Shown piece after piece: positions 52,549-58,754 of a DNA stretch of 64,000 nucleotides. The stretch comes from Eutreptiella sp. 'Long Island Sound 2002' (lineage: Eukaryota > Protista > Euglenida). The stretch is taken from positions 182,094,001 to 182,158,000 of the forward strand of contig OZ038378.1 in NCBI GenBank assembly GCA_964036045.1, read 5' to 3'. The first letter of the stretch is position 1; every line of letters starts with the position of its first letter. The position numbers and the translations under genes were made by a program. The notes beneath the pieces are model-generated. The model had not been told where the DNA came from. It worked only from the letters and a program-made list of their open reading frames with translations, and did not search any database.

Positions 52549-52735
52549 TGCCGGAGAGGTGCATGGTTCATTTGCGGTTTGAAGCTACGTGTAACGTGAA
52601 ATATCGAAATCTTTGGGTGAAACACCATGGTTGGCGTGCGGTGAACAAAAGTCTTACGCTCTTGTTGTACTGCAGCCCGATAATGGCCTTCTGAAGAGAT
52701 TTTTGCGTTGTTTGCTTCGTGTACCGCTCACTAAT
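52549..52735 (+). repeat. 5' terminal direct repeat (pseudo-LTR), 187 bp
   Basis: Base-by-base identical to 58568-58754 by eye. Confidence 0.95.
52581..52718 (+). ncRNA. Hammerhead ribozyme core, type II topology (5' repeat)
   Basis: C-GAAA at 52605-52609, stem III ATC/GAT, cleavage triplet AUA (after 52682), palindromic stem I ATGGCCTT 52683-52690, CTGAAGA-G 52691-52698, stem II 52593-52605 with 52698-52709. Confidence 0.75.
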
Positions 52736-52873
52736 CATACTTACGCCTTCGACCACGCTAGCCGCAAGGGACATACGAAGGCCGTTACACTCCTCAACCC
52801 CGACATTACCATTGAATTATTTGGTTTTCATCGTTTGCATCGTCTTTGCCAACTACAATTGATTGTACTCGCC

Positions 52874-54160
52874 ATGGCACCAAAGGCACGAACTACACAA
52901 GGCCAAAGGAAATATTGCGCAATTCACAAGAGTTTGGGCAACCATACCACTAGCGAATGCAAAGGGATCAAAAAGACCGATGACGCCGATAAACGTTGCT
53001 ACCTTTGCAACGCAACGGGACACACAATGACCACGTGCCCGCGCCGGAAAGATGCTATCGACACGGATGACGATGGGAAGTATGTTGCATCGAAACAATG
53101 CTGGAACGGGTGTGGCGGGAATCACTTGGTTTCGGATTGCAAAGAGCCGTTATGCATTAAGGTAATCCGCATGAATGAAAAGGCTTATTTCGAGAGCAAG
53201 GCGGATGGAAGAGATTTTCTACCGATTCGCCGGGAACAAGTGATGGGCGGCAACACAACGGCGACCCCGACACCACGAGCATCGCCGGCGACCCCGGCGC
53301 CAACGCCGTCAATTCCCGTTGAATTCATGACGTTGGATGTGAGGGCGTCATGCTCATGGGACGGCGAAAAAATTGGCGATTTATTGAAAGAGCTTGCTAC
53401 GACGCCGGATGTGAACATCGCGCAGGAAAATGGTGTTGAAACGCTTGCGTTGTCCTTCTCTTCAGAACATGAATTGGTTGCGGCGCAACACACCATTGGG
53501 AAGCAACAAGACGGCAACGGAGAGCATTTCATCGTGCGGAGAAGGCACACACCGTCTACACCATGCCCTGCTGGAGCTACATCGTCGTCAACACCAAGTA
53601 CCCAAGGCGGCGAGGCGCCATGGGCAGCGGACATCAATGCCATGAGAACAGACCACAAAAAGTTGGAACGCAAAGTGAATGTCATGGGCAATCGCATCAA
53701 CAAGTTGAGCGATGAGACCGACCGTACGCAATCCTTCATGCTGGAATTTGCAGAATTTTCGGGTATGACAAATGCACGTGCGGTTATGGCGAAATGTGGG
53801 AAGCAAGATAAGTCAAAAGAGGATGGCGCCAAAGATCCTACACCGACGGACGTCGAGGAAGATGACATGGAAGTGGACAAGCACCGAAAAACCGGAAAGC
53901 GCTCAACGGGTGAGAAGAGCGTGGAGTCCACGTGTGATGCAACAACACAACACGCGTGGGCCGTTGTAAAATTGGGGAACCGCCACCATGTCATGCATGT
54001 GGAGCATGTGAGGACGGAAGAACGGGGCAACGAGACGCACTACCTGGTCAGGTACGAGAATGAGGAGGCGTCCATGGAACATTGGGTTCGAACCAAGGAT
54101 TTGTTCAACACCGAGCCGGATGCCGAAGCCGCCGCTGAAGAGCGGTCGGCAAAACGCTAA
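52874..54160 (+). CDS. ORF1, gag-like nucleic-acid-binding protein (428 aa from ATG 52874; open frame extends to 52613)
   Basis: Zn motifs CAIHKSLGNHTTSEC (52916-52960), CYLCNATGHTMTTC (canonical CX2CX4HX4C, 52997-53038), CWNGCGGNHLVSDC (53099-53140); coiled-coil-like INAMRTDHKKLERKVNVMGNRINKL; C-terminal chromo/Tudor-like segment. Confidence 0.85.
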   Translation: MAPKARTTQGQRKYCAIHKSLGNHTTSECKGIKKTDDADKRCYLCNATGHTMTTCPRRKDAIDTDDDGKYVASKQCWNGCGGNHLVSDCKEPLCIKVIRMNEKAYFESKADGRDFLPIRREQVMGGNTTATPTPRASPATPAPTPSIPVEFMTLDVRASCSWDGEKIGDLLKELATTPDVNIAQENGVETLALSFSSEHELVAAQHTIGKQQDGNGEHFIVRRRHTPSTPCPAGATSSSTPSTQGGEAPWAADINAMRTDHKKLERKVNVMGNRINKLSDETDRTQSFMLEFAEFSGMTNARAVMAKCGKQDKSKEDGAKDPTPTDVEEDDMEVDKHRKTGKRSTGEKSVESTCDATTQHAWAVVKLGNRHHVMHVEHVRTEERGNETHYLVRYENEEASMEHWVRTKDLFNTEPDAEAAAEERSAKR

Positions 54161-57100: not shown

Positions 57101-58465
57101 TTCCAGGATGACAAGCAGTTTGAGGAAATATCCGTAGAGCAGGACCACCAGACAGCTAATGAAGTGGCGCTGCAAAAACTGGCAGATGCGGCGCAGCATA
57201 AGGGCCTGGCGGAGTTTTGGAGGGAAACGGCGGCCAGTGGACCGCCCAGTGCATACTGCCTGCCAAAGAACAAAATGACCGAGGAGGTGGGGGGGGCATG
57301 GAAGGCGAGGGTGATTTTCTCCCACTTCGCCCACCCCATCAAGGCCCGAGGTAAGATTATAGGACGTGCGCTGTCCCTGTTGTTGAAGACAGCCACAGCA
57401 CACATGCATTGTTTCGAGATGGTGGATATCCGTGACGTCAAAGGATATGCAGAACAGGTGCAGAAATCACTGTATCATATCGTGGGGTCAGGTGAAAACC
57501 CACAGGGCATTGGAGAGGGAGGCTTCAGGTTGTGGGAACTGGATGTTGTAGAGATGTTTCCCCGACTGGACAGACAGAGAGTACTGGATGCCCTGAAGGC
57601 TGTCCACGCCCTGGTTGCGGAGGCACGTAAAGCCCGAGGGAAGAACCCCCAGTGCTGGTTTGCCCTGCATAAATACGATAGAAAGCTTGACCGCATGGGG
57701 AAGGGCAGTGCGTGCCACTATACAAATGTGACGTTTGCTGAAGTACTGGCCTTTGTAGAGTACGAGCTGACCTGCAACGACATTTTCGTTGCTGGCAACC
57801 GGGTACTGCGCCAGCGACGGGGGGTGGCGATAGGGGGCACCTGCAGTGCCCAGCTGGCATGTCTATACTGCATGTACCAAGAACATGAATGGTATAAGGG
57901 GGGGTTTGCATCATATGTCGACAGGGTTGAGCATTGGATGCATCCCAGGTCTGTTCCGCTTTTTCCATTCAGGTTCAGAGATAACATCGTGGGGGTTGCC
58001 TGGGGGGATGTACCGCTGTCTGCCATACATGGGTATTTCAGTGAGGTATATAACCTGGAACTGCAGATGGAGGGTGAAGGGGACACACTCCCCAGTTTGG
58101 AGGCACGACTAAACCTGTGTAAAGACACAGGTACGATGGGGCTTCGCCTCAAACGCAGGGCTGAGGGCCCGACGGATGTGTACCGCAGTATCGTCAGGTA
58201 TGTAGATTGGTACAGTACCAATGCAAAAACAGTGCTGAAGAGTCTGGTGCCAGCACTGGTAGGAAAGTGCGTGTACTATGCCATGACACAGGAAGATGTG
58301 GCTGCCAATGTACGGGGAGTAATGAGGGAACTGCTCCGCAAAGGGTACCCTGATGCGTGGTGGGTACCAACGCTGCGCTATGGCCTACGCCGCAGGGGGG
58401 TGCCAGACAGGATAGTGCAGGCAGAATTGATGCTCACACATACACAGCACACTGAGTGTAGGTGA
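54161..58465 (+). CDS. ORF2 (1434 aa): basic N-terminus, uncharacterised domain, GIY-YIG endonuclease, Penelope-type reverse transcriptase and thumb
   Basis: GIY-YIG: WVYVILSITDGTVYVGETGG..RFWEH..RERSWI..YN (~55900-56195). RT: CTC..HGC pre-RT motif, PLDKN (PLE DK motif), AYCLPKNK, KARVI, LDVVEMFPRL, QRRGVAIGGTCSAQLA, FRFRDNI, thumb LLRKGYP. Confidence 0.92.
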   Translation: MVQTRQQRRATTTQVVPGAPAGVPSTPRRSHRIAQRQKSDATPIYNKPNHPSTNDDAASIMGSAWNLRPRQHVNYAEYECTEEESEDAMIRPTTEELPVDRRRNPRRMCRSAARRRDPTRDPEHRAMVNHVRARAKDARERRHGRRLRARAEMQAPAQDDGDGIDAAWRDITAYWKTFRLPKSKRRLRWMTAGEAPEVGMALPPLRLTNAEFIDAMGARQEAIDSQCRAIRQAMEAGHYGNAGTTHMFDLQQRHEPIHDGAKELKRMIERSATLRSLWRRYTEHYGIFVWQEVTDERGNHFLQHCRRWAQHLESTKGTGAWCPSYAWRGWAEDVLGQVDMWVGGVPMTDWHVPVATTDVSYSPFATPVTAILSDKQDEVSLVWTVQPDDNRQTWGALQTAVETRGLPTRVLIGYPKERQALANDIMRDCGNSWRMWVAYQGDSPTCKSQDMYIDKRRRCHSTTVTIQWVVCEWRPDGLQPINLHKYVQGLSNICKRGRGAWRLPPGTNLGDKELRRRRHAETLDALQTERAQLLRGGKDLQAMADNMEKTWKVLQSSERRWVKRVLGHSKIPEPSWMEYGTWVYVILSITDGTVYVGETGGKGETRRIMDRFWEHVTAARSLMSGAYKADPTWKRWQRAMGSSGLESWVIIPVERVTAGTRLIRERSWIRRMGKTYNCKRTWGKGRAQALGQRALRDEGPGNMDDLAAQAEKVAHALRVPESAAQLVRLLLACRKRVPKDVESKLYQKVKGVIRQRLGIHLPRVLAVPIPTGKDVNMQPTMDALQTILTEYAAPKWLHRYLAAVIRPVGKRGKKVKDVLAPTTLRGSMEEALAKAEAACTCAHRPAGVPRMHGCCIARNPAHLRLLFGDHAPVLMQNLDNTTAADWGTATETVDRFAKQLSRSFPRGTGPSQRVVAESVKLTLRPEFHKLEGSVPHHLTMKALKKFRKAFPHWKITPLDKNGGRAIAMCGKLYWSKTIEAFQDDKQFEEISVEQDHQTANEVALQKLADAAQHKGLAEFWRETAASGPPSAYCLPKNKMTEEVGGAWKARVIFSHFAHPIKARGKIIGRALSLLLKTATAHMHCFEMVDIRDVKGYAEQVQKSLYHIVGSGENPQGIGEGGFRLWELDVVEMFPRLDRQRVLDALKAVHALVAEARKARGKNPQCWFALHKYDRKLDRMGKGSACHYTNVTFAEVLAFVEYELTCNDIFVAGNRVLRQRRGVAIGGTCSAQLACLYCMYQEHEWYKGGFASYVDRVEHWMHPRSVPLFPFRFRDNIVGVAWGDVPLSAIHGYFSEVYNLELQMEGEGDTLPSLEARLNLCKDTGTMGLRLKRRAEGPTDVYRSIVRYVDWYSTNAKTVLKSLVPALVGKCVYYAMTQEDVAANVRGVMRELLRKGYPDAWWVPTLRYGLRRRGVPDRIVQAELMLTHTQHTECR

Positions 58466-58567
58466 CAGTTAACTATTTTTTCCTGTACCCTCAGGAACAG
58501 GTCCAGTGTCCGTCGACACTGCCACGTGCACGTTAACCACCAGGGCCCCACCAACAAGGGGGGCCCA

Positions 58568-58754
58568 TGCCGGAGAGGTGCATGGTTCATTTGCGGTTTG
58601 AAGCTACGTGTAACGTGAAATATCGAAATCTTTGGGTGAAACACCATGGTTGGCGTGCGGTGAACAAAAGTCTTACGCTCTTGTTGTACTGCAGCCCGAT
58701 AATGGCCTTCTGAAGAGATTTTTGCGTTGTTTGCTTCGTGTACCGCTCACTAAT
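58568..58754 (+). repeat. 3' terminal direct repeat (pseudo-LTR), 187 bp
   Basis: Identical to 52549-52735. Confidence 0.95.
58600..58737 (+). ncRNA. Hammerhead ribozyme core, type II topology (3' repeat)
   Basis: Identical to the 5' copy; GAAA 58625-58628, predicted cleavage after 58701, CTGAAGA 58710-58716. Confidence 0.75.

Follow-up and report, generated by a model that had tools for sequence, protein, structure and literature searches.

The 64,000-nucleotide window analyzed here (the whole stretch from 182,094,001 to 182,158,000 of contig OZ038378.1, assembly GCA_964036045.1, from the euglenid Eutreptiella sp. 'Long Island Sound 2002') harbors, at positions 52549-58754 of the + strand, a young retroelement with both open reading frames (ORFs) intact. 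We consider it quite probable that this is an intact, recently inserted Penelope-like element (PLE) of the Chlamys type, with the endonuclease (EN) ahead of the reverse transcriptase (RT), that belongs to a lineage with FRDN at the RT active site and likely spreads by target-primed reverse transcription (TPRT). Its layout is known; the novelty lies in the RT active site, an accessory domain, and the topology of a ribozyme motif, and the FRDN branch is apparently large and undescribed. The original prediction was right to recognize a young permuted PLE whose lineage looks undescribed; it missed the DN active site, the PCIF1-like domain, and the type II hammerhead.

Enzyme order and class

The class assignment begins with ORF2 and its catalytic parts:

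54161..58465, + strand: ORF2, 1434 aa, from ATG 54161 to TGA 58465, uninterrupted
55898..56200, + strand: GIY-YIG endonuclease, aa 580-680, from a fold match and R, H, E, and N residues
56591..58462, + strand: telomerase-like RT and thumb, from fold matches and motifs
56675..56683, + strand: CxC motif (CTC, aa 839-841), diagnostic of Naiad and Chlamys

From a basic N terminus (aa 1-234), ORF2 runs through a methyltransferase (MTase)-like domain, the EN, the CxC motif, and an RT with an insertion in the fingers domain (IFD) to the thumb; a model of aa 235-1434 (75 aligned sequences; predicted local distance difference test, pLDDT, 82) is accounted for by the MTase-like, EN, and TERT-like parts. 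The EN superposes on I-TevI (VIA: Z 8.6, root-mean-square deviation (rmsd) 2.0 Å, 86 aligned residues), retains the catalytic R, H, E, and N, and is of the Chlamys type: Cys is absent from the stretch separating the two tyrosine motifs and from its immediate upstream flank, so both the CCHH finger and the CX2-5CxxC linker are missing. The RT begins at aa 811, C-terminal to the EN as in Naiad and Chlamys, and displays a DK motif (57035, aa 959-960), the motif A Asp1128, an insert of IFD length, and FRDN at 57974-57985. Its fold is that of telomerase: all of the top 18 Foldseek rows for the ORF2 model are telomerases, and in VIA the first 4 rows belong to TERTs (Z 17.8, rmsd 6.8, 416 aligned), above LINE-1, R2, and Ty3. 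The predicted placement of a GIY-YIG domain N-terminal to a PLE-type RT thus stands. Sequence searches of Pfam and the PDB with ORF2 alone gave only a weak GIY-YIG match, and the Pfam GIY-YIG model matches 8 of the 75 alignment members; Pfam misses this RT entirely, and such elements are therefore likely to go unannotated.

An N-terminal EN without CCHH, CxC, DK, and IFD are the Chlamys traits given by Craig et al. (PMC8557442). The permuted EN-RT clade comprises Naiad and Chlamys, and the EN of Hydra elements, which the original prediction had counted among the permuted PLEs, is C-terminal (PMC8557442); the present element shares neither that C-terminal EN nor the Hydra absence of CxC and IFD. 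With DIRS elements it has only an MT-like domain in common, its RT being telomerase-like and its nuclease GIY-YIG. The spacing from motif A to motif B is 93 aa, against ~85 in Chlamys-2_cBra and ~61 in Penelope (both counted by eye in the published Fig. S1). The layout had been predicted to be novel, unless a described family proved to have the same order of ORF1, EN, and RT; Chlamys-2/-5_cBra from Chara braunii have it, since in them EN-RT and a hammerhead already occur together with an ORF1 that bears a zinc knuckle (PMC8557442).

An FRDN active site

Motif C reads FRDN in place of the canonical two-Asp YxDD. Among the best 150 of 621 homologous representatives, 83 cover motif C, of which 75 have DN, 5 have DD, and 3 have other residues; the motif A Asp is retained in 71 of the 74 rows covering it. 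All five published Chlamys compared at this motif have DD (Chara families 1-4 from File S6, translated by eye, and one C. reinhardtii protein). For phylogeny, collapsing at 90% identity left 34 of the 52 proteins whose RT coverage was at least 75%; two near-duplicates were then removed and one DD protein of lower coverage was added, and the fifth DD homolog, P0128, was left out as too short. In the resulting 33 rows, 4 DD and 29 DN proteins are split across one branch with 99/98 support, and the same split has 98/98 support under a mixture model with 26 rows (five long branches and two close relatives removed).

This tree bears on the idea that the element adds just one more ordinary member to the Chlamys-2_cBra group, its DN motif, N-terminal domain, and hammerhead order being minor quirks already present in curated libraries. 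The shared layout, the resemblance by eye of the RT motif A and B regions to those of Chlamys-2_cBra, the closeness of the DD homolog P0199 to that family, and a motif C comparison limited to five published Chlamys all leave room for such membership. We nonetheless think it unlikely, given that the DN proteins form a well-supported and deeply diversified side of their own, that in Chlamys-2_cBra motif C reads RLMDD, the hammerhead is of type I, there is a single knuckle, and only ~70 codons (by eye) separate the ORF1 stop from the EN, and that the available File S1 assigns an MTase domain to no Chlamys family (PMC8557442).

Whether an enzyme of the DN type can sustain mobility is a separate matter. 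RTs are described as invariably having three aspartates, and Ty1 cannot transpose without the second Asp of YxDD: D211N lowers kpol 223-fold and abolishes transposition, yet polymerase activity is kept in vitro (PMC2148107). Narrow-phrase searches of the open-access literature found no natural variant of this second Asp. The Ty1 block and the existence of DD relatives (5/83) would suit an enzyme that is dead or crippled, with the element copied in trans by DD PLEs and ORF2 kept for its endonuclease or for RNA binding. This scenario appears decidedly improbable to us in view of the polymerization retained by Ty1 D211N, the fixation of DN across families at 20-40% identity, the persistence of the motif A Asp, and the many DN families that lie on ENA contigs of large size, the 28 matches there having shown no DD family (the motif was not tallied for each).

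Termini, target site, and recent copying

The element is bounded as follows:

52544..52548, no strand: left copy of the target site duplication (TSD), TGTTT, from flank comparison; present once in a related empty site
52549..52735, + strand: 5′ pseudo-long terminal repeat (pseudo-LTR), 187 bp, from repeat comparison
58466..58567, + strand: 3′ untranslated region, with a GC-rich hairpin directly 5′ of the repeat
58568..58754, + strand: 3′ pseudo-LTR, an exact copy of the 5′ one
58755..58759, no strand: right copy of the TSD, TGTTT, from flank comparison

Repeats, candidate TSD, and uninterrupted ORFs (428 and 1434 aa, without breaks) all turned out as originally described. The 187-nt repeats are 100% identical and lie 6019 nt apart, and TGTTT borders the element on both flanks, a 5-bp TSD for which a match of at least 5 bp arises at 0.18% of random junction pairs (200,000 draws). 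In contigs from three of four runs, an empty site joins 52528 to 58754 via two letters (GT) and has TGTTT once. The empty form lacks the 15 nt at 52529-52543, a 10-nt tandem duplication plus 5 nt just left of the TSD, and differs in several letters; it is therefore a paralog or an allele. The target itself (52397-52548 and 58755-58970) is a multi-copy repeat with high depth and paralogous empty sites.

Pseudo-LTRs and a surplus of 3′ ends are PLE traits, and the element has both. Summed contig depth, which is not a copy number, reaches ~1250-2230 at the 3′ end versus ~110-480 in the body (two runs), climbing several-fold across the last 300 nt; as expected, this surplus fits truncated or non-autonomous copies. 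Many related sequences join the element at ~58557. The blocks 58557-58592 and 58681-58752 are common to many related sequences, and between these blocks, in the stem III region of the hammerhead motif described below, the sequences diverge, a pattern that suggests abundant non-autonomous or sister families.

The cluster that includes ORF2 numbers 14 members, whose identities are 91-100% and whose contigs have 10 different lengths; one member is 99.7% identical over 1346 aa, and a sister cluster has 8 members at 78-88%. Synonymous changes make up 18 of the 22 coding variants scored among the 40 best-supported differences, including 11 of the 13 listed sites in ORF1; one more listed variant, outside the 22, is the ORF2 stop codon. 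Recent copying is thus indicated by the identical repeats, the TSD, the near-identical cluster members, and the mostly synonymous variants. Identical pieces of the element are also present in one estuary metagenome.

A degenerate motif-B pattern matched no viral sequence and 14 metagenome sequences; none of the 14 has a tblastn match to either ORF, and we therefore regard them as chance.

A predicted PCIF1-like methyltransferase domain

The accessory domain of ORF2 precedes the EN:

54947..55645, + strand: PCIF1/CAPAM-type N6-adenine MTase fold, aa 263-495, from predicted structure

The 350 aa upstream of the EN are conserved at 21-30% among the element, P0012, P0057, and P0123. In the full ORF2 model, aa 263-495 match zebrafish PCIF1 with Z 8.7. 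A domain-only model (pLDDT 68) places human PCIF1 at Foldseek rank 1 (E 6.8e-4) and matches zebrafish PCIF1 with Z 11.5 (rmsd 4.0, 206 aligned), with the next row at 8.4; nearly all its other matches are S-adenosylmethionine-dependent methyltransferases. The ESM Atlas held no usable match to this part. ORF2 has no NPPF-like motif, and VQPD follows the matching strand at the likely catalytic NPPF position, for which reason the domain is probably inactive here. Elsewhere in the DN clade the motifs look intact: P0165 and P0200 have CNPFF and CNPVF together with DLFS and DIFSS, and P0200 has a Pfam PCIF1 match under the cut-off (E 4.8e-4). From these motifs, the two proteins are candidates for an active retroelement-borne adenine methyltransferase.

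A study of the DIRS1 methyltransferase (MT) domain and the PCIF1 clade was reportedly authored by Iyer, Zhang, and Aravind. DIRS1 MT was placed within that clade, and all its copies were called likely inactive (PMC4738411). The word "methyltransferase" was not found in the available main text of PMC8557442, and a literature search brought up no PLE with a PCIF1-type domain among the results listed.

A hammerhead motif of type II order in both repeats

Each pseudo-LTR contains a hammerhead motif, and a related repeat lies just downstream:

52592..52710, + strand: hammerhead motif in type II order, predicted to cut after 52682, from descriptor and folding
58611..58729, + strand: second copy of the motif, predicted to cut after 58701, identified as the first
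58986..59168, + strand: pseudo-LTR from a related family, diverged and lying beyond the element, with the same start and end

The repeats likely carry a self-cutting RNA of unusual arrangement. Each motif consists of a stem II arm, C-GAAA, a long stem III, UA, an 8-nt near-palindromic stem I, CUGAAGA-G, and a second stem II arm, the 13-bp stem II being made by both motif ends; three stems flank the core, stem I only as a duplex between copies. This order, GAAA-UH-CUGAAGA, is type II, in place of the type I of Chlamys-2_cBra. The PLE hammerheads in File S2 of PMC8557442 and in PMC4209133 are all type I in the available portions; type II hammerheads have been described chiefly in bacteria and archaea, usually with a pseudoknot (PMC3088659). 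A loose regular expression for the motif also matched unrelated bacterial loci, and stem-aware descriptors were therefore used; the bulge-tolerant one gave 3 matches in the window against 6 in 200 random 64-kb windows.

The unstable palindromic stem suggests a double hammerhead. A variant at 58708 (37-67% of depth in four runs from three samples) improves the stem I palindrome from -8.3 to -10.5 kcal/mol, one at 58718 retains a G-U pair, and no core position varies among the 40 best-supported differences. In the diverged repeat the core is intact, the stem I palindrome is perfect (-11.3 kcal/mol), and stems II and III are changed yet paired. This repeat is followed by CGCCTTCGA, with an 8-nt offset that matches the 5′ repeat of the element; from this resemblance, it may have formed the 5′ terminus of an older element. 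Just 3′ of the 5′ repeat, positions 52776-52782 are complementary to stem I plus the first core base and are paired with them in the predicted fold, a pairing that could silence the 5′ hammerhead.

ORF1 and its junction with ORF2

The upstream frame and its parts are as follows:

52874..54160, + strand: ORF1, 428 aa, from ATG 52874 to TAA 54160, uninterrupted
52916..53140, + strand: three Zn-knuckle-like motifs, kept in the ORF1 homologs that cover them
53624..53758, + strand: coiled coil, aa 251-295, predicted homotrimer, from heptads and a trimer model
53951..54109, + strand: possible Tudor/chromo (Royal family) barrel, a lead with scores of 0.76-0.81, under 0.9

Of the three Zn knuckles originally described, all are present as knuckle-like motifs, and one is a canonical CCHC: aa 42-55 follow CX2CX4HX4C, whereas aa 15-29 are of a CxxH type and aa 76-89 read CX3CX3HX4C. 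The Pfam zf-CCHC match is under the cut-off. An upstream ORF1 with a CCHC knuckle is itself a trait of the Chlamys-2_cBra subgroup. The coiled coil is hydrophobic at 9 of 12 a/d positions, and its trimer model reaches an ipSAE of 0.75 versus 0.01 for the best control, with pLDDT at least 67 and contacts that agree by at least 75% across runs; this mark, reached by 21 of the 30 true pairs and by none of the 23 monomers, was calibrated on two copies only and calls for caution with eukaryotes. The predicted chromo-like domain matched neither Pfam Chromo nor the PDB; what is left is the Royal-type lead, found in one of three ORF1 homologs. An RNA recognition motif at aa 147-225 was guessed at by eye, and database searches gave it no support. 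From its knuckles and predicted trimeric coiled coil, ORF1 resembles LINE ORF1 proteins, and no evidence of a capsid emerged for the retrovirus-like gag that had been proposed.

The TAA of ORF1 directly adjoins the ATG of ORF2 in the same frame, an arrangement first taken for a gag-pol-like junction. No fused ORF1-ORF2 product occurs in the 22 members of the two nearest clusters, and none was found in a search at 788-2510 aa (no ORF1-based search was made). In the sister subfamily P0053, ORF1 ends differently; its tail does not align to any other frame of the junction, and an ORF overlap model is therefore not claimed. Reinitiation is known for LINE-1 and SART1, and we think that ORF2 is likelier to be translated in this way than as a gag-pol fusion.

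The same observations bear on whether this PLE has converged on LTR retrotransposons, with a capsid Gag, Gag-Pol readthrough, and true LTRs formed by strand transfer. The in-frame stop, the CCHC knuckles, the possible Royal-family barrel, the identical repeats that begin with TG, the 5-bp TSD, and a remnant repeat with the same two ends would all be at home in such an element. The flanking direct repeats are ordinary PLE pseudo-LTRs, for which convergence need not be invoked. It is made very improbable by the differing ORF1 end and lack of fused ORFs, the predicted trimeric coiled coil, a 3′-end surplus that fits TPRT truncation, and the model of ORF2 aa 235-1434, for which no match to a protease, RNase H, or integrase is listed.

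A proposed life cycle and what weighs against it

For a Chlamys-type PLE of the FRDN lineage, we posit the following cycle. RNA would be transcribed from or through the 5′ pseudo-LTR. ORF1 would act as a trimeric, knuckle-bearing RNA chaperone like that of LINEs, and ORF2 would probably be made by reinitiation at the adjoining TAA-ATG. The GIY-YIG EN would create the TSD by introducing nicks staggered by 5 nt in the two strands, and the two-aspartate RT would copy from the 3′ end of the repeat through one unit plus 187 nt, leaving two identical repeats; frequent early stops would yield the surplus of 3′ ends. The PCIF1-like domain, probably catalytically dead, might bind RNA or the cap, a role that has been suggested for its DIRS counterpart. 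Finally, within a single transcript, the two hammerheads may join through the palindromic stem I, exchange stems I and II, and cut after 52682 and 58701, and the freed 6019-nt RNA could circularize and serve as a more-than-unit template. This pairing, excision, and circular template make up the least certain step, which we rate a little below an even chance.

More tentatively still, the element may stand for an ancient, undescribed xxDN clade, sister to the Chara Chlamys-2 group, that gained a PCIF1-type N6-adenine MTase ahead of its nuclease. In some families this enzyme would have stayed active and could modify RNA of the element itself by methylation, and the two terminal type II hammerheads of the clade, paired through the palindromic stem I, would excise a circularizable unit RNA only from full-length transcripts.

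Several points weigh against these readings. The trees consist of homologs, P0199 being a by-eye stand-in for Chlamys-2_cBra, and are unrooted because they include no published PLE or TERT sequence; what places the element beside Chlamys are its motifs, its folds, and comparison by eye. The effect of the Ty1 D-to-N change would leave room for mobilization in trans by a DD enzyme. The variants scored are the 40 best-supported of 757 differences. The PCIF1 match is modest (that pLDDT of 68, template modeling score 0.41-0.44, 9-13% identity), and comparing the N-terminal regions profile against profile did not connect the domain to P0165/P0200 (probability 0.1%). Similarity to solved coiled coils may be what lets this one pass the trimer test. 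As to the ribozyme-bearing repeats of the original prediction, a hammerhead core is present in both, whereas Rfam returned no hammerhead match; both descriptors were composed after the motif had been seen, and the strict one matched only the diverged repeat. The active fold lies 11.5 (monomer) and 23.8 (double form) kcal/mol above the free minimum, the corresponding values for the diverged repeat being 7.3 and 7.8, and free cofolding of two repeats picks another structure than the double hammerhead. In the sole PLE tested, that of the anole, the hammerhead needs protein for cleavage and is dispensable for insertion in vitro, so that insertion needed no hammerhead cleavage (PMC11167929).

Other features of the window

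The host genome is rich in repeats. The C-terminal part of a further RT from this group survives at 60889-61285 as a frameshifted relic (tblastn to P0107, E 4e-15). A unit of ~1.2 kb is tandemly duplicated at 18459-21314 (~2.4 copies, 97-99% identical), and a family of ~50-bp subrepeats in inverted orientation at 8460-8840, 11590-11820, and 39620-40900 resembles a miniature inverted-repeat transposable element or a foldback element. Two overlapping frames at 34321-35434 (194 and 197 aa) look transposon-like by eye and have no Pfam match; four ORFs of the window lack one.

Comparison with known systems

LINE-1-type ORF1 proteins, encoded by a separate upstream ORF, combine a trimeric coiled coil with nucleic-acid-binding modules, and the present ORF1 is predicted to do the same, with the difference that its knuckles are N-terminal. 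The RT shares with Ty1 D211N the change of the second Asp of YxDD to Asn; the Ty1 mutant was engineered and is transposition-dead, whereas here the change is natural, conserved across multiple families, and found in young copies. A diversified and young xxDN lineage would be a natural test of the role of the second Asp in the RT group nearest telomerase.

Like the DIRS1 MT domain, the accessory domain is a PCIF1-type fold, probably inactive, inside a retroelement polyprotein. It differs in standing before a GIY-YIG domain in a PLE, with neither RNase H nor tyrosine recombinase, and in that some DN-clade relatives retain NP(F/V)F, whereas the DIRS copies described were all called likely inactive (PMC4738411, in its available portion). 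If a PLE does carry it, this kind of domain, known from DIRS, would have a second retroelement home, and the relatives with intact motifs make its function assayable.

The hammerhead resembles the minimal and dimeric type I motifs of PLEs (PMC4209133) in having a core with G10.1-C11.1, one unstable palindromic stem, and a place in both pseudo-LTRs; here the open stem is stem II and the palindromic one stem I. If this arrangement is real, a type II motif in both repeats predicts a 6019-nt unit RNA that depends on two-copy pairing, with consequences for the role of PLE hammerheads and the formation of pseudo-LTRs. Chlamys-2_cBra has DD, a single knuckle, and a type I hammerhead in which a short stem III is the palindrome, and it leaves too little space for an MTase before the EN. 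The Eutreptiella element, in contrast, combines FRDN and three knuckle-like motifs with a PCIF1-like fold of 230 aa, an adjoining in-frame TAA-ATG, and a type II hammerhead whose palindrome is stem I.

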